Sequence record: MH464253
Reading direction: 5' to 3' (one strand)
From: Shigella phage SFPH2
Length of the DNA: 40,387 nt
The position numbers were made by a program, and so were the translations under genes. A model generated the notes under the pieces. That model was not told the DNA's origin, ran no database searches, and saw nothing but the letters and a program-made list of their open reading frames with translations. The first letter of the stretch is position 1. Each line of letters begins with the position of its first letter. Shown here piece after piece: positions 1 to 40,387 of the stretch.

Positions 1-909
1 GCGACCTTTAGCCCAGTACCCACCACCAACCACCCCGGTCCACGGCTTAGGTGGCACGACGCAGGGCTGGTAAACTGGGGCAATTCCTGCCAGAGAGAAA
101 CCACGCTGAGCCATCTTCTTGACCCAGAAGTCAGACAGGTGGACCATCTCAACGTCTGCCGCAGCGTTGCCTGCACCGTAGCGCTTAAGCTCGACCAGTT
201 GTGAGGACTGGATGACCAGCTCAAGCATCTTGATGCCTACGTGAACAGCCTCGGTCGGACTCCAAGTCCCCCACGCGTCAGCCAGTTGTCCCTGCTCAAG
301 CATAGACGCCTCGACTGCCTGCATGTAGGCCTTCTTGTAGCTTGCGCCAGCGCGTTTCTTCAGGTTCTCCGCGATGGTCTTCTTGAAGTGCTCCTGCTCC
401 TGCTCACGGATGCGACCAAAGCGGATTTCATCTTCCAGTGTGCGACCTATCGCGGATGCCATAGGAGTTATCGGAATGCCTTCAGGCTTGACCAGCTTGC
501 TGAGGATGACTTTCAGTATGATGACCGCAGCAGACTCCGCAGAGATTAGCAGAGAGCGGTCTTTGACAGCCTTCTCGTCAGTGCTCATCATGGTAAACGC
601 CACGCTTGGACGTGAGGTCGAGGACTTACCGTCCGGGCCTTCATGCCACTCACGCACAGCCTTAGCGATGGTCGGAACCAGTGTTTGCATCAGAGGTTTA
701 GCGACCTGATTGTCTGCCAGCTCCCCGCGCTCGGTCTGACGCTCAAGGTTCTTAATGAAACGTCGCTCACCTTCAGTGTATGCCTCATGCTCTAGCTGGA
801 GCTGTTTGACTGCGAGGTCTTGCCCGTAGTGGTCAGCCAGTACGTTGAAAGGTTCGATTGCATTCGACACATCAGAGAAGTCGTGTTTGTCAATTGAGAT
901 GACGCTCAT
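1..909 (-). CDS. gp1: DNA-directed RNA polymerase, N-terminal part (gene cut by window boundary; continues at 40387..38615)
   Basis: ATG at 909..907 with AAGGA 9 nt upstream; translation MSVISIDKHDFSD...FGRIREQEQEHFKK...PCVVPPKPWTGVVGGGYWAKGR is colinear with T7 RNAP N-terminus; frame runs off position 1 with a complete codon. Confidence 0.93.
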   Translation of the reverse strand, partial: MSVISIDKHDFSDVSNAIEPFNVLADHYGQDLAVKQLQLEHEAYTEGERRFIKNLERQTERGELADNQVAKPLMQTLVPTIAKAVREWHEGPDGKSSTSRPSVAFTMMSTDEKAVKDRSLLISAESAAVIILKVILSKLVKPEGIPITPMASAIGRTLEDEIRFGRIREQEQEHFKKTIAENLKKRAGASYKKAYMQAVEASMLEQGQLADAWGTWSPTEAVHVGIKMLELVIQSSQLVELKRYGAGNAAADVEMVHLSDFWVKKMAQRGFSLAGIAPVYQPCVVPPKPWTGVVGGGYWAKGR

Positions 910-984: not shown

Positions 985-1007
985 GAGTCCTTTAGTGATA
1001 GTTTAGT
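985..1007 (-). promoter_or_regulatory. Phage-promoter-like element upstream of gene 1 (ACTAAACTATCACTAAAGGACTC); variant of the consensus, also half of a 10-bp inverted repeat
   Basis: 17 of 19 upstream positions match the phage promoter consensus but TATAGGG is replaced by TAAAGGA; ATCACTAAAG (plus 944-953 region) pairs with CTTTAGTGAT (988-997). Confidence 0.35.
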
Positions 1008-1011
1008 CCAA

Positions 1012-1688: not shown

Positions 1689-2423
1689 TCACTCAGCTAT
1701 TGCGTTCAGCCTGCCTTGCAGCTCGTCTTGATGGTCTGCCTGAGTCCAAGACACTGGGTCTGTGATTATCAGTCGCCCGTTGTTATCAACCATCACATTA
1801 GCGCGGTGTGTGTCGAATGATGCCAGCCCGTAGAAGAAACTGTTAATCTTCTTAGCAGTCTGCGCAAGGTCCTTGATATACTGGGCCTCGACGTGTGCAA
1901 ACTCAGCCCGTGCGTCTTGGTCCAGCCACCAGCTCAGGGCCTCAGACGGTTGCTCGCAATGGTCTATTATCGCGTTGACTACACGCCACGACACGTTTAA
2001 GACTCGCTGCTCGTAGGTCTCACCATCCCGGCAGTAGTCACCGCCGATGTCATTCAGTGAGCGGTACTTATCCATAGCCACCATGTAGGCCCTGCTGAAG
2101 CGCTTGACCAGATGGATGACCGGAAGCCCAGCCAGACCCTCGTTCTCTCGGCAGAAGGCCGCATATGCAGCGCCTGAGTCATCCTTCTTAAAGCCTACCT
2201 TGATTGCATATCCCGGCAGGTCCTCATGCTCAAAGGCAGCGGCGAAATGTCCAAGGCCTAACAGCTTGTAACCATGTTCCCGCGCCAGTATCTCAAAGGC
2301 TCCCCAGCGAGGTTGACCAGCTATGCCAGCGCTAGAGTCTTCAATCTTGTAGCACTCCTCGCAGATGATAGCGTGGAGCTGAGACATCAGGTTATTCATG
2401 ATTACTTTATCGTGTGCGTTCAT
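1689..2423 (-). CDS. gp0.7: Serine/threonine protein kinase (T7 gp0.7-type kinase domain only)
   Basis: LGLGHFAAAF...AIKVGFKKDDSGAAYAAFCR...ITDPVS blocks match T7 gp0.7 kinase domain; ATG at 2423 (MNAHDK) has AAGGAAAC SD, the track start at 2456 is TTG; about 115 residues shorter than T7 gp0.7. Confidence 0.85.
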   Translation of the reverse strand: MNAHDKVIMNNLMSQLHAIICEECYKIEDSSAGIAGQPRWGAFEILAREHGYKLLGLGHFAAAFEHEDLPGYAIKVGFKKDDSGAAYAAFCRENEGLAGLPVIHLVKRFSRAYMVAMDKYRSLNDIGGDYCRDGETYEQRVLNVSWRVVNAIIDHCEQPSEALSWWLDQDARAEFAHVEAQYIKDLAQTAKKINSFFYGLASFDTHRANVMVDNNGRLIITDPVSWTQADHQDELQGRLNAIAE

Positions 2424-2454
2424 TACGTGTGTTTCCTTCTTGTGGTTAAGTGAC

Positions 2455-2495
2455 AATCAGTCAGGCCACCAGCATGGATGACCTGTAGTCTGGCA
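2455..2495 (-). promoter_or_regulatory. Conserved RNA hairpin A (candidate RNase III processing site)
   Basis: Minus-strand transcript CAGGUCAUCCA..UGGUGGCCUG, stem closed by G-U wobbles; member of a 5-copy family. Confidence 0.5.
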
Positions 2496-2515
2496 CTCGT
2501 CTACAGCGCTAGGCC

Positions 2516-2863
2516 CTAGACCTCCACCGCGATGGTCGTCATCTTGGTTACAGTAAGTCCGCCAGCCAGCTCGACTGCATAGCGTATCGCCTCTTCTTTG
2601 GACTTAAAGTCCTTACCAGCAAGGTGGTATGTGTCCCCTGTTATTACCTTAGATGGACTGCGACTTACCGCAATAGCGTTTTCCATGGCAAGCTCACCAC
2701 GGCTATACTGAGTAAACCAGCGCTTCACCGAACTCGTCCCCACCCCGAACTTTTGGGCTGTTTCCGTCACCCTATCCATAACGCCCTCAGGTAGAGAGGT
2801 GTAGTATTCAACAACGTTGAGTTTAAATGCTAACGAGAATACATTGCGAGTTTTAGCAGTCAT
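2516..2863 (-). CDS. Early protein with putative N-terminal helix-turn-helix (115 aa)
   Basis: ETAQKFGVGTSSVKRWFTQY resembles transposase/sigma-type HTH (A..GVS..T..RW); SD GAAGGAAAG upstream. Confidence 0.6.
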   Translation of the reverse strand: MTAKTRNVFSLAFKLNVVEYYTSLPEGVMDRVTETAQKFGVGTSSVKRWFTQYSRGELAMENAIAVSRSPSKVITGDTYHLAGKDFKSKEEAIRYAVELAGGLTVTKMTTIAVEV

Positions 2864-2884
2864 TATTCTTTCCTTCTATATTTG

Positions 2885-2940
2885 TCAAGTGGTAATCACT
2901 CAGGCCACCATGTAGATGACCTGTAGTTTAACACTCAGTA
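2885..2940 (-). promoter_or_regulatory. Conserved RNA hairpin B (candidate RNase III processing site)
   Basis: CAGGUCAUC-UACAU-GGUGGCCUG with two G-U wobbles, same flanks as hairpins A, C, D. Confidence 0.5.
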
Positions 2941-3060
2941 CCCGCCTGTCAGCGTTATGGTTAGCGCATGGTGGTTAGCCGTGTAGCAGGCCCCGCGCTT
3001 CATCAGCTCGACGAGACCATCATAGAACGCCTGCTCGCTGCTGTAGCTTATCGTGTACAT
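2935..3060 (-). CDS. Small hypothetical ORF (41 aa)
   Basis: ATG overlapping upstream stop (TGATG); MYTISYSSEQAFYDGLVELMKRGACYTANHHALTITLTGGY; below track length cutoff. Confidence 0.3.
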   Translation of the reverse strand: MYTISYSSEQAFYDGLVELMKRGACYTANHHALTITLTGGY

Positions 3061-3263
3061 CAGTAGAACCTCCTTGCGTACTTGAGGAAAGCGCCATCAC
3101 GCAGAATCTCCCAGTCTCCCCAGCTCAGGCTATAGCTATGCGGAAGTTTGAACTCCTTGTTAACGTGTATGCTTGACCGTATGGTCACAAACTTGGAGTC
3201 GCCCACGGTCTCAATATCAACCGTTATCCACGGCTTGATGTGATTAGGGTATGAGTTAATCAT
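3060..3263 (-). CDS. Hypothetical early protein (67 aa, 0.4 position)
   Basis: ATG at 3263 (MINSYPNH) directly after SAMase stop with GGGAGGTGG SD; track start at 3296 lies inside SAMase. Confidence 0.5.
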   Translation of the reverse strand: MINSYPNHIKPWITVDIETVGDSKFVTIRSSIHVNKEFKLPHSYSLSWGDWEILRDGAFLKYARRFY

Positions 3264-3264
3264 C

Positions 3265-3717
3265 TTACACCACCTCCCAGAACCGACCTTCAGCATCTTT
3301 CGTGAAGCATTCGCCCTTTGGTGCCTCGACTTGCTGGAATGCCCCGTTCAGACGTGTGGTCTTGTAGCCATCCAGACCTTTGCAGAACATCAGGCCAGCC
3401 GTGTGAGTCTGAGACTTGTAGACCATCACGCAGTCTTGCTCAAAGTCATTGCAGGCCAGCCGCGCAACGTTGATAGCCTGAGCTTTGGACTCACAGCGCA
3501 CACGATATGTTCTCTCCTCAGTGGCGACCTCTTGCCCTTCCTCGCGGTAGCATCCTGTAAGCCCAGTGCATTCGAGCACACCGTAGTAGTCTGGCTCAGC
3601 TTGTAGCAGTGCCTTAAGGTCTAACTGACGGCCCATGTTCACTATGTCTGACAGTCCAGCACGAGCGGCTGACACGAGCACATAGAAGACGTTAGCTGGT
3701 TCGTTAGTGTAAATCAT
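3265..3717 (-). CDS. gp0.3: S-adenosyl-L-methionine hydrolase/lyase (T3 gene 0.3-type SAMase, anti-restriction)
   Basis: MIYTNEPANVFYVLVSA...TGCYRE...VRC.SKAQAINVARLACN..EQDCVMVYKSQTHTAGL matches T3 SAMase as recalled, near-identical length (150 aa). Confidence 0.88.
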   Translation of the reverse strand: MIYTNEPANVFYVLVSAARAGLSDIVNMGRQLDLKALLQAEPDYYGVLECTGLTGCYREEGQEVATEERTYRVRCESKAQAINVARLACNDFEQDCVMVYKSQTHTAGLMFCKGLDGYKTTRLNGAFQQVEAPKGECFTKDAEGRFWEVV

Positions 3718-3931: not shown

Positions 3932-3961
3932 ATACTACTTTAAGTCGTTACTGCTTGTCAA
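3932..3961 (-). promoter_or_regulatory. Candidate host sigma70 promoter (TTGACA-N18-TAGTAT), rightward/sense
   Basis: Hexamers read on minus strand upstream of the early genes. Confidence 0.3.
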
Positions 3962-4168: not shown

Positions 4169-4196
4169 TTGACTTTAAGTCTGGACTGTGGATAAT
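4169..4196 (+). promoter_or_regulatory. Candidate sigma70 promoter on the antisense strand (TTGACT-N16-GATAAT)
   Basis: TTGACTttaagtctggactgtgGATAAT on plus strand; closely resembles T7 A1 core (TTGACTtaaagtct...GATACT) but points opposite to all genes. Confidence 0.4.
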
Positions 4197-4199
4197 GAG

Positions 4200-4852
4200 A
4201 GTCCAGTTAGCAAGACACTAACTAATAACCCTAGTCAGCTATGGTCTCTGACTGCTAAACGGACCGGATGTGATAACCTGTGAGTCTAGACCTTAGGACT
4301 CTGATAAACTGAAGGTCGACATGGTGTCTATTGACTGTAGGTAGTGAGACTGTAGGTAGTCCCGTTACCAATGGATTGACTGTAGGTAGTGAGACTGAAG
4401 GTGATGACTCTAGGCTGATACAGATAGCGACTCAGGGACACAACATATAGTCCCGACCAATCGTCCCTACCACAAGATATAGGCCCTATCGGTCCAGACT
4501 TCGGGTCGACTTCGGGTCAAAGACTTGAGGTTTAGACCTTCGGTCTAGGGGTAGGGCCTTTGGTCGAGACTTAAAGAGGGCCTATGGGGAGACTTGAGGT
4601 TCTTGAACTGTGAGATGTGGTCTCAAACTTTTGGTCCAAAACTCATCGTCCCTACTGTAGGCCTCAGCCACTGTAGGTCAAGGACCGTAGGTCAGGCGAC
4701 ACTAGGGTAGACCAGTGAGTAGGATGACCCTAAGTGAGCTTCTCTTAAGGTGTTACCTAAAGTCCTTGACTACAGTAGCTAAGGTCAGTAGAGTAGCGTC
4801 AGCTATGAACTGACCTTAGGTCCGTCTTTCGTTGATTGTTACCATGATGGCG
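4200..4852. repeat. Repeat-rich non-coding terminal region (expected location of physical genome ends / terminal repeat / concatemer junction)
   Basis: No ORF of 60 codons or more on the coding strand; 22-bp perfect direct repeat TTGACTGTAGGTAGTGAGACTG at 4331-4352 and 4376-4397; recurring CTGTAGG, ATCGTCCCTAC, AGACTTGAGG, CTTCGGGTC motifs. Confidence 0.6.
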
Positions 4853-5185: not shown

Positions 5186-5208
5186 CTTCCCTATAGTGAT
5201 AGTTAAGT
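5186..5208 (-). promoter_or_regulatory. Phage RNAP promoter (phiOR position): ACTTAACTATCACTATAGGGAAG
   Basis: Full consensus match between terminase large subunit and gene 19.5. Confidence 0.85.
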
Positions 5209-5301
5209 CCCTTTCCCTTTAGAATCATTAAATTACGAGAGATACCTAACGCACTACTTACTGCTTATACATGCAGATTTCATGCGTAGGTATTCATTAG
5301 G

Positions 5302-38614: not shown

Positions 38615-40387
38615 TTAGGCGAATGCAAAGTCAGATAGCAGAATGTCTTCGATGTTCAGTTTACCGCGCTTCGGCAGCTCAGGCAATTTGTCGCGCTGGC
38701 TCTCATGAAGCTGGTCCTCGAACTGCTCGTAGAAGTCTTGCAGAACATCGTTGTCTCGGTAGGTCTCGACCATCGTCTCACGGACTCCCTTGAACAGGAA
38801 CTCAGCGTCTGCCGGGATGGTCCCAAAGCTGTCGTGAATCACCGCGAAGGACATCACGCCATACTTGCGGTGGGTATGGACTACAGTCTTCCTCAGGTGA
38901 CTGCCATCCTGTGAGTGTACAAAGTTAGGGCTGATACCGGACTCCTGCTTGTGCTTGTCCAGCTCTTTCTTCGACCCTTTGTTGACTGTCGGTTGCAGGT
39001 TGAACGACCCAAGGAACAGGAGGTTCAGCCGTGTGGTGTCTTTCTTGCGGTATTCCTGCCAGACCGGGAACCCATCAGGTGTTACCCAGTGTACCGGAAG
39101 GCAAGGCTTCAGGATTTCGCCAGTCTTCTTGTCCTTCACTTCAGCAGCCAGTAGCTTGGCAGCGCCTTGAAGCCACTTCATCGCGTCAACCGCAGCAACT
39201 ACGGTCACACTCACGGCGTCCCATATCATCTTAGCCATGAAGCGAGACGCTTGGCTTGGGTCGGTGAACATTGCGCCTTTACCGCTGTCAATCGCTGGCA
39301 TCACGGTGTCCTCAAACACTTGGTCCGCGAACCCGTATTCTTTCGACCCGTAGGCCAGAGTCATGACCGAGCGTTTAGTGACCGAGCGTGACATCCCGTA
39401 GGTCAGCCACTGTCGAGCCAGCTCACGGGTCCCAAGGACCAGACGCTCAGTAATCTCGCCTGTCTTCTTGTCCTCAAAGGTCTTCATTTCGTTGTCGCTC
39501 CCGTTGACCAGCAGTTCCTTGAGCTGTTCTTCCACCCGGTCGGACACAATGCGGTAGATGTCTTGGACCTTCCCGCTTGGCGTCAGGTTTACCGCATGTC
39601 CACCAACGTGGTCACGGAGCATAGCGCTGAAGTGCTGAATCCCGGAGCAGGACCCATCGAACGCGATAGGCAGTGAGCAGGAGTAACTCAGCCCGTGGTG
39701 CATGACTCCAGCATACTCAAAGCAGAACGCTAGGAAGCAGAACGGAGAGTCTAACCGGCCCCACCAATCAATGCTGTCCATCGGATTCTTTGCTGCTGAG
39801 AGGATGTTGTCGTGGTTGTCTTCGACCCACTTGATGCGCTCCTCAAAGGTGACTTTATCGACACCCGCGCAGTTTGCACCATGTACCTTCAGCCATTTGA
39901 AGCCGTCCGCACCGATTGGTTTACCGACCGCCAGAGTCAGCAGGCCCTTCTGCATATCGTTGCCTTGAGGGTTGAACATCGGGACAGCGTACACTCGGCC
40001 CCGCCAGTCCATGTTGTACGGGAACCAGATGGCCTTAAACTGAGAGAACTTGTTAGCCTGTGAGACGATGAAGCTCAGGGACAAGCGGCGCGACTGTCGG
40101 GCCTTCTCGCGTCGATAGATGCCAGCCGCAGACTTCTTCCAAGCCTTAAGCTCCTCCTCGGTCTCACCCGCATAGTCTTCAGGCTTCAGTGGCTCCATCT
40201 GAGGGATGTCAGCGATAGGCGTGTTATTCAGCTTCTCGACCATGTTCACCACTTCCAGCACCTTCTTGTTTACCTTCCAAGGAGTCTGCTGAATGATGTT
40301 CACTGCCTCTACCACTTCAGGCATGTACACGTCTTCGTAGCGCTGGACCGCAGCCTTAGACCCTAAGCGAATCAGTGGTAGAGGTCT
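38615..40387 (-). CDS. gp1: DNA-directed RNA polymerase, C-terminal part (continuation of 909..1 across the circular junction)
   Basis: Frame open to window edge; ...RYEDVYMPEV, FPYNMDWRGRVYAV.MFNPQGNDM.KGLLTLA, SPFCFLAFCFEYAGV.HHGLSY, GIQHFSAMLRD, SVMTLAYGSKE, HDSFGT, ends DFAFA as T7 RNAP. Confidence 0.97.
   Translation of the reverse strand, partial: RPLPLIRLGSKAAVQRYEDVYMPEVVEAVNIIQQTPWKVNKKVLEVVNMVEKLNNTPIADIPQMEPLKPEDYAGETEEELKAWKKSAAGIYRREKARQSRRLSLSFIVSQANKFSQFKAIWFPYNMDWRGRVYAVPMFNPQGNDMQKGLLTLAVGKPIGADGFKWLKVHGANCAGVDKVTFEERIKWVEDNHDNILSAAKNPMDSIDWWGRLDSPFCFLAFCFEYAGVMHHGLSYSCSLPIAFDGSCSGIQHFSAMLRDHVGGHAVNLTPSGKVQDIYRIVSDRVEEQLKELLVNGSDNEMKTFEDKKTGEITERLVLGTRELARQWLTYGMSRSVTKRSVMTLAYGSKEYGFADQVFEDTVMPAIDSGKGAMFTDPSQASRFMAKMIWDAVSVTVVAAVDAMKWLQGAAKLLAAEVKDKKTGEILKPCLPVHWVTPDGFPVWQEYRKKDTTRLNLLFLGSFNLQPTVNKGSKKELDKHKQESGISPNFVHSQDGSHLRKTVVHTHRKYGVMSFAVIHDSFGTIPADAEFLFKGVRETMVETYRDNDVLQDFYEQFEDQLHESQRDKLPELPKRGKLNIEDILLSDFAFA

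Follow-up and report, generated by a model that had tools for sequence, protein, structure and literature searches.

The locus and the early region

The DNA considered here (the window) is the 40,387-nucleotide sequence record MH464253 of Shigella phage SFPH2, a Kayfunavirus. All of its long open reading frames (ORFs) are on the minus strand, and the record presents the complete genome as its reverse complement, with the opening placed within gene 1, the gene for the phage RNA polymerase (RNAP). Gene 1 spans the two ends of the record (909..1 plus 40387..38615, minus strand) and amounts to 894 codons with a single terminal stop. The subject of the current report is a complete coding sequence at 2516..2863 on the minus strand, which runs from ATG to stop in the ORF list (stop codon at 2516-2518) and specifies a protein of 115 amino acids (aa) and 12.7 kDa. 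A first-pass annotation had recognized an ORF at this position and had quoted from it a motif suggestive of a helix-turn-helix (HTH), without giving the strand. Both the ORF and the motif are present on the minus strand, where the quoted residues, ETAQKFGVGTSSVKRWFTQY, are positions 34-53 of the translation (2705..2764, minus strand) and correspond in the secondary structure to helix 2, the turn and helix 3. The ORF is preceded by a Shine-Dalgarno sequence, GAAGGA (2871..2876, minus strand), which ends 7 nt 5' of the ATG and is kept in orthologous loci. Orthologues with 88-99% identity are annotated as coding sequences in the phages GW1, SH3, phiHAO1-1, Penshu1 and TM1, and the dN/dS ratio of the gene is well below 1 across phages in which synonymous sites are near saturation. 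The ORF is thus a genuine, selected, early and accessory gene of a T7-like phage.

The early region reads, on the minus strand, from a sigma-70-like promoter (3961-3932) through the genes for a SAM lyase, a DUF7300 protein, a 41-aa protein, the 115-aa protein and a protein kinase, followed by two small ORFs and the RNAP gene, which begins at 909. The promoter, TTGACA-18-TAGTAT (3932..3961, minus strand), lies upstream of the early operon and was located in a consensus scan with 10/12 matches, and is a candidate by consensus match only. The first gene of the operon (3265..3717, minus strand) encodes the SAM lyase (SAMase) of the T3 gp0.3 type (PF23780, E 1.2e-39), and the next gene downstream of the 115-aa gene (1689..2423, minus strand) encodes the gp0.7-type kinase (phrog_15752, E 5.6e-115), for which the ATG at 2423 is chosen in accordance with the annotation of GW1. 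Directly upstream of the 115-aa gene lies the conserved 41-aa ORF (2935..3060, minus strand; phrog_33188, E 1.2e-7), which is annotated in GW1 and in SFP21A. The DUF7300 ORF (3060-3296, minus strand; PF23974, E 2.2e-26) overlaps the 3' end of the SAMase gene in its longest form; it and the 41-aa ORF are both small, conserved early ORFs and separate the SAMase gene from the 115-aa gene.

A 22-mer that represents the phage promoter occurs in 11 copies in the genome, of which those nearest to the early genes lie at 988-1009 and 5189-5210. Since a scan with this 22-mer found no copy on the minus strand between about 4100 and 1010, the 115-aa gene can be assigned to the host-transcribed class I region. 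As expected for class I genes of the T7 type, it lies upstream of the RNAP gene and downstream of a host-type promoter, with no phage promoter between, which agrees with the early location between SAMase and kinase that had been proposed for it. The copy at 988-1009 (minus strand) is a variant, GGACTAAACTATCACTAAAGGA, situated just upstream of the RNAP gene. To our knowledge, T7 has no phage promoter at the equivalent place, and the SFPH2 copy might direct autogenous transcription of gene 1 or might be inactive. Farther upstream, the non-coding DNA that separates the early promoters from the terminase side contains closely spaced direct repeats of the form ATTGACTGTAGGTAGTGAGACTG(T/A)AGGT at 4330-4402 and also at 4181-4208; they probably represent the array of repeats that T7-like phages have at genome ends or concatemer junctions.

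Paralogous hairpins on either side of the gene

Two paralogous hairpins bracket the 115-aa gene, which thus has the form of a cassette. The upstream one, designated here Ra (2887..2936, minus strand), has an RNase III-type shape, with a lower stem, an internal loop and an upper stem (RNA fold -21.0 kcal/mol, z -2.4). The second, Rb (2448..2498, minus strand), lies between the 115-aa gene and the kinase gene and is a direct repeat of Ra with about 85% identity. Both belong to a family with five to six intergenic members in the genome (2436-2512, 2875-2945, 1635-1705, 7545-7625, 37777-37850 and 30735-30800, all minus strand), including one that follows the kinase gene. In the common design an asymmetric internal loop separates the lower stem GAGUGUUA/UAACACU from the upper stem AGGUCAUC/GGUGGCCU, and the folding z scores of the family range from -1.2 to -3.4. 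The RNase III processing sites of T7 occupy the same kind of intergenic positions and have the same kind of shape, and by this analogy Ra and Rb may be taken as RNase III processing sites. Rfam, which holds no such family, returned no match on the early region.

The two hairpins are not constant features of the locus. Rb is absent from GW1 and Dev2, in which two nucleotides separate the stop codon from the kinase ATG (TAAccATG; about 3198-3206 in GW1), an arrangement that suggests translational coupling of the two genes. Shigella phage SFP21A, a close relative of SFPH2, does not have the gene; all that is left there of the two hairpins (L002 1550-1650) is the left lower arm of Ra, fused with the right lower arm of Rb, and this junction is a deletion scar. 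The absence of the whole gene from so close a relative indicates that it is accessory and non-essential, as does the fact that several carriers also do without the kinase. Among close relatives dS is higher in the C-terminal than in the N-terminal half of the gene, and this difference suggests that recombination has taken place within it.

The N-terminal helix-turn-helix domain

On the evidence of sequence comparison and structure modelling, residues ~10-55 are assigned to a homeodomain-like HTH of the IS3/IS66 transposase-accessory type (HTH_Tnp_1). The domain (residues 10-55; 2699..2836, minus strand) is recognizable in the AlphaFold2 (AF2) model, in Pfam matches, in distant family members, in profile matches to solved structures and in its isoelectric point. 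AF2 predicts helices at residues 11-23, 31-39 and 43-54 with pLDDT 81-92, in a layout in which helix 2 (31-39) is followed by the turn G40-V41-G42 and by a recognition helix (43-54) with an invariant tryptophan, W49. The N-terminal half of the protein is basic (pI 9.9, charge +3.5), and, as judged from the fold, helix 43-54 most likely binds duplex DNA.

The Pfam assignment of the domain is consistent in kind and marginal in score. The top matches of the 115-aa protein are five HTH families (BrkDBD, HTH_Tnp_ISL3, HTH_23, HTH_28 and HTH_Tnp_1), all of them below their gathering scores. The best single match, to BrkDBD (PF09607; residues 6-50), has an E value of 6.9e-5 and 23.1 bits against a cutoff of 23.4, and the match to HTH_Tnp_1 (PF01527) has 15.6 bits (E 0.019) against a gathering score of 24.1. 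Membership in HTH_Tnp_1 is therefore transitive rather than direct, because thresholds that the 115-aa protein does not reach itself are passed by relatives that have the C-terminal domain and the linker in common with it: P0031 (34.1 bits), P0036 (40.4), P0039 (33.5-38.6) and P0073 (33.5) score at or above the gathering score of HTH_Tnp_1 or HTH_23, and P0034 (25.0) and P0030 (24.4) above that of HTH_Tnp_1. P0048 (39.8) and P0077 (33.2) exceed the latter as well. P0031 also matches the IS66 accessory protein TnpA in NCBIfam (E 4.3e-11), where the 115-aa protein itself gives only partial transposase-HTH matches far under the cutoffs. A profile of the family matches the solved HTHs of the IS3-type transposase protein Cgl2762 (2jn6, E 0.0045) and of the Brinker DNA-binding domain (2glo, E 0.0082). 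A Foldseek search of the PDB with the full-length model returned homeodomains, TnsB and TnpE at the top, none of them significant (best E 0.16).

Taken together, the AF2 helices, the Pfam matches and the profile matches to the PDB agree with the first-pass annotation that the protein has an HTH of the transposase type, and the Pfam check that it had recommended places HTH families uppermost. The alternative label that it had offered, of a sigma-type HTH, is not sustained. No Sigma70_r4 match was obtained in Pfam at E <= 1, and the sole link to sigma-70 region 4 is a Foldseek match to domain 4 of sigma-A (4g8x_A) with E 0.84.

The linker and the C-terminal domain

The HTH is followed by a conserved linker (residues 56-75; 2639..2698, minus strand), recognized in alignments by the motif G-x-L-S-L-x-N-A-I-A-V-S-R-x-P and modelled by AF2 with low confidence. 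Beyond it lies a C-terminal alpha/beta domain (residues 76-115; 2519..2638, minus strand), predicted to consist of a beta-hairpin (79-81/84-86), a helix (89-100) and a beta-prone tail, LTVTKMTTIAVEV. This domain is slightly acidic, and when folded alone it was modelled with moderate confidence (pLDDT 72-83). Constraint is stronger here than anywhere else in the protein. An alignment of 19 relatives has 37 invariant positions between G56 and V115, whereas the N-terminal halves fall to 55-60% identity. In the comparison with phage pO2, the C-terminal half of the gene has dS 1.09, dN 0.11 and omega 0.10, against dS 1.57, dN 0.86 and omega 0.55 for the N-terminal half. Because synonymous divergence is high in the C-terminal half (dS about 1), the invariance there reflects selection at the protein level, and conservation of the DNA itself or an overlapping gene can be ruled out as its cause. 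Among distant members of the family the invariant positions shrink to Y79, F86, V97, G101 and G102, and I, C, V, Y or K stands in place of H80.

Searches with this part of the protein returned little. Pfam, applied to 12 members, gave for the C-terminal domain only faint matches to DUF2188 and NDUS4. The DUF2188 (PF09954) matches were set aside, as they cover only ~19 model positions in 5 of the 12 members and reach at best E 0.028 and 13.4 bits (in the 115-aa protein) against a cutoff of 22. A profile of the domain found nothing meaningful among all PDB sequences, its matches to Contactin and to an RRM of PRP24 being at the level of chance, and a fold search of the BFVD retrieved the orthologue alone. 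PADLOC, NCBIfam and PHROGs hold no match to the C-terminal half, nor does PADLOC match the 115-aa protein as a whole or PHROGs have a family for it. We also considered whether the hairpin and helix might be read as an HNH (beta-beta-alpha-Me) or a GIY-YIG nuclease, and rejected both readings, for which neither a profile match nor conserved catalytic residues were found. The C-terminal part of the protein (56-115) is a real conserved core with no relatives detectable by sequence or by fold. The emphasis of the first-pass annotation on the HTH was thus justified in that the HTH is present, but the HTH is the faster-evolving half, and the more constrained C-terminal domain had been overlooked. 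Since the HTH evolves fast and the C-terminal domain persists in derivatives that have no HTH (see below), the HTH may not be the functional heart of the protein.

Distribution and genomic setting of the family

By tblastn, the protein was detected in 24 of 50,697 phage records, all of them from the Autographiviridae and none of them T7 or T3, in keeping with the earlier remark that the canonical early genes of T7 do not include this one. Cronobacter phage GW1, a Kayfunavirus, has 95% identity to the 3.2 kb that surround the gene, and 223 phage records are related to this stretch, so that the carriers make up ~11% (24/223) of the phage records that share the early region. A profile search of 1.84 billion representative proteins yielded 53 matches at E <= 1e-3; two weak long matches, P0067 and P0070, proved to be BNR-repeat proteins and were discarded as spurious. 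In a collection of 5.8 billion proteins about 33 clusters were found, one of which is labelled 'SiR5 protein' and the longest contigs of which are about 40 kb.

In every context examined, a member of the family lies upstream of the RNAP gene. These contexts include Kayfunavirus (GW1, SH3, phiHAO1-1, Penshu1, TM1 and pO2), Przondovirus (VLCpiA3d, in which the family member is the first gene and precedes ocr), Foetvirus (SRT7, in which it lies just before the kinase gene), Phimunavirus, the unclassified Pectobacterium phages JJY1 and Phoria, and metagenomic contigs. The SFPH2 protein itself is present in the BFVD (A0A345AV87, 115 aa) under the name 'Transposase', with 100% identity over the C-terminal 60 residues tested. 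The literature contained no match to its peptide strings or accessions; the protein is absent from the supplements of two screens of accessory genes, and it is not discussed in the SFPH2 paper (PMC6302001).

Derivatives and the shuffling of modules

At least five deletion or fusion derivatives have no HTH and carry the C-terminal domain as the in-frame continuation of an unrelated N-terminus. In Dev2, gp0.2 (L003 759-1076) consists of SAMase residues 1-46 joined to residues 57-115 of the 115-aa protein at a GGTG microhomology, whereby the SAMase is destroyed. In IMEP24, which also has no kinase, the protein annotated as 'DNA mimic ocr' (L004 1117-1677, 187 aa) is Ocr extended by residues 63-115. 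The remaining three carry the domain behind the N-terminus of gp0.4 (P0028), of a DUF7300 protein (P0032) and of the 41-aa ORF (P0006). The intact reading frame of all five fusions points to selection that acts on the C-terminal domain by itself; the indication is a weak one, because a search for derivatives by way of protein databases favours in-frame cases. The derivatives might also mean that DNA binding is dispensable for whatever is selected.

Other combinations of the modules also occur. In P0036, P0039, P0073 and JJY1 (L008 827-1438), proteins of 155-203 aa carry a second HTH ahead of the unit made up of HTH, linker and C-terminal domain. Another set of proteins (P0041, P0044, P0045, P0048, P0050, P0077 and AZF94947 of Phoria) have in common the HTH and the 'NAIAVS' linker and end in unrelated C-termini. 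From the existence of these two sets it can be concluded that the HTH-linker unit and the C-terminal domain shuffle independently of each other.

Possible functions of the protein

The reading that we hold to be probably, if by no means securely, correct is that the 115-aa protein is an early regulator or host-takeover factor built of two modules, an HTH that would be bound to DNA and a C-terminal effector or oligomerisation module. The gene would be transcribed by the host RNA polymerase together with the SAMase and kinase genes and, given its position between two RNase III-type hairpins, would probably be released as a small mRNA of its own. The HTH might then tether the protein to DNA, either that of the phage early promoters or the host chromosome, with a specificity that differs between phage lineages. 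The conserved linker connects it to the alpha/beta domain of ~45 residues, which would perform a conserved task, either dimerisation or contact with a conserved component of the host. The net effect could be a modulation of transcription by the host polymerase, or some other early step of host takeover or anti-defence. The suggestion of the first-pass annotation, that the protein regulates transcription, is plausible in this light by analogy with T7 Gp5.7 and the Aca repressors (see below), and competes with an autonomous role of the C-terminal domain. Several observations count against the two-module arrangement: the protein falls under all Pfam gathering scores, the Foldseek matches of its HTH are not significant, the C-terminal model is only moderately confident, derivatives exist that have no HTH, and the gene has been lost from SFP21A.

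A clearly less probable alternative, although one that deserves to be kept in mind, is that the C-terminal ~45-60 residues are by themselves a self-sufficient effector of host takeover or anti-defence, with a conserved protein or nucleic acid of the host as its binding partner. In that case the HTH would be an exchangeable and dispensable accessory, and the protein would not be primarily a regulator of transcription. The contrast in omega between the C-terminal half (about 0.1) and the HTH (about 0.5) is what such an effector would lead one to expect, as is the recurrence of the C-terminal domain in five independent derivatives behind a SAMase fragment, Ocr, gp0.4, DUF7300 and the 41-aa ORF, and the genes of its neighbourhood (SAMase or Ocr, gp0.4 and kinase) have anti-defence or host-takeover functions. 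Deletions at microhomologies are, however, common in the early regions of T7-type phages, and the fusions could be neutral scars of such deletions, as the GGTG shared at the Dev2 junction would allow; moreover, three of the five derivatives came to light through protein databases, in which in-frame cases are favoured. The domain has no similarity to a known anti-defence protein or to a PADLOC model, and in full-length members from different genera the HTH and its linker are conserved too. A bolder form of the same idea, which we regard as doubtful and as slightly less probable again, is that the ~45-residue domain is a new, self-sufficient effector of host takeover or anti-defence directed at a highly conserved enterobacterial target, for which HTH, Ocr and SAMase fragment would serve as different carriers, the form with the HTH being the one tethered to DNA.

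A quite unlikely possibility is that the gene is a relic of an IS accessory gene (of the IS3 OrfA or IS66 TnpA type) or a selfish mobile cassette with little role in infection, which would have spread between phages by recombination at the repeated hairpins that resemble RNase III sites. The type of the HTH and the UniProt entry of the SFPH2 protein as 'Transposase' are in line with such an origin, as are the patchy distribution (24 of 223 related early regions), the 85%-identical direct repeats that flank the gene, its clean loss from a close relative and the difference in dS between its two halves, with its suggestion of intragenic recombination. Against it stands the lack, in the vicinity of the gene, of an ORF for a DDE or other catalytic transposase (the neighbours being the 41-aa ORF and the kinase) and of inverted repeats at its ends or target duplications. 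The repeats on either side of the gene, the only ones there, are direct copies that belong to the hairpin family of the phage; since this family recurs at five to six intergenic positions in the genome, they are not the ends of an element. Nor would a relic be expected to have a C-terminal domain under strong purifying selection, or to belong to a family that was found only in phage early regions and never beside transposases. As for the protein being a transposase in its own right, its 115 aa hold an HTH and the C-terminal domain only, and since there is neither a catalytic domain nor a pair of element ends, the label 'Transposase' is a misnomer.

A shade more unlikely still is the notion that the three-helix domain does not bind DNA but contacts a protein, for instance sigma or the RNA polymerase of the host, which would suit the habit of early and middle proteins of T7-like phages of binding host proteins (gp0.4, gp0.7 and gp2 act in this manner), the fast, arms-race-like evolution of the HTH (omega about 0.5) and the position of the protein under all Pfam thresholds, but which fits poorly with the bona fide DNA binders among its closest relatives of solved structure (the Brinker-DNA complex and the IS3-type HTH), with the strongly basic character of the domain and with the invariant W49 and the F13-K14 pattern, both of which conform to the DNA-binding signature of HTH_Tnp_1 and Brinker.

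Significance

The early regions of T7-like phages are places in which functions of host takeover and anti-defence are concentrated (Ocr, SAMase, gp0.4 and gp0.7), and most of the small accessory genes in these regions still await an assigned role. The protein described here adds to them a compact, phage-restricted family that has no Pfam or PHROG family of its own, and a new combination, in which an HTH of the transposase type is joined to a C-terminal domain without known relatives. That C-terminal half is under unusually strong constraint and has been repeatedly retained when the remainder of the protein was deleted. The analysis also corrects a misleading annotation, 'Transposase', in a phage that has been proposed for use in therapy. 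If the protein should turn out to be merely one more early repressor, the result would be an ordinary one.

Comparison with known systems

The two-module protein that we favour can be set beside several known systems, each of which it resembles in part. With the canonical T7 gp0.3-gp0.7 it shares the genomic compartment, the size class (~5-40 kDa), the non-essential accessory character and, if the analogy of the hairpins holds, the delimitation of mRNAs by RNase III. It has no homology to any of these proteins, however, and its gene co-occurs with homologues of the gp0.3-type (SAMase or Ocr), gp0.4 and gp0.7 genes, with no consistent replacement of one of them.

The HTHs of IS3 OrfA and IS66 TnpA have the three-helix, homeodomain-like fold that is predicted for the 115-aa protein and have in common with it the pattern F-K-x-x-V-x-x-Y ... 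A-x-x-[FY]-G-[VI]-S-x-x-[ST]-[VL]-x-x-W. Unlike them, the 115-aa protein lacks a partner transposase ORF, IS ends and a continuation into a leucine zipper; it carries instead a unique alpha/beta C-terminal domain and is encoded in the early operon of a lytic phage. The DNA-binding domain of Brinker (PF09607; 2glo), a transcriptional repressor of Drosophila, is similar in the layout of the helices and in the conserved W of the recognition helix, a resemblance that is due to a shared homeodomain-like superfamily and not to orthology.

The closest parallels in presumed function are small phage HTH proteins that damp transcription by the host RNAP from strong phage promoters, as described for T7 Gp5.7 (PMC5569994) and likewise for the anti-CRISPR-associated (Aca) repressors (PMC9410906). 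Gp5.7 differs in that it is a winged HTH and the product of a middle gene, whereas the gene for the 115-aa protein is an early one. Both Gp5.7 and the Aca proteins would be functional analogues, and the 115-aa protein possesses, in addition to its HTH, an extra conserved domain.
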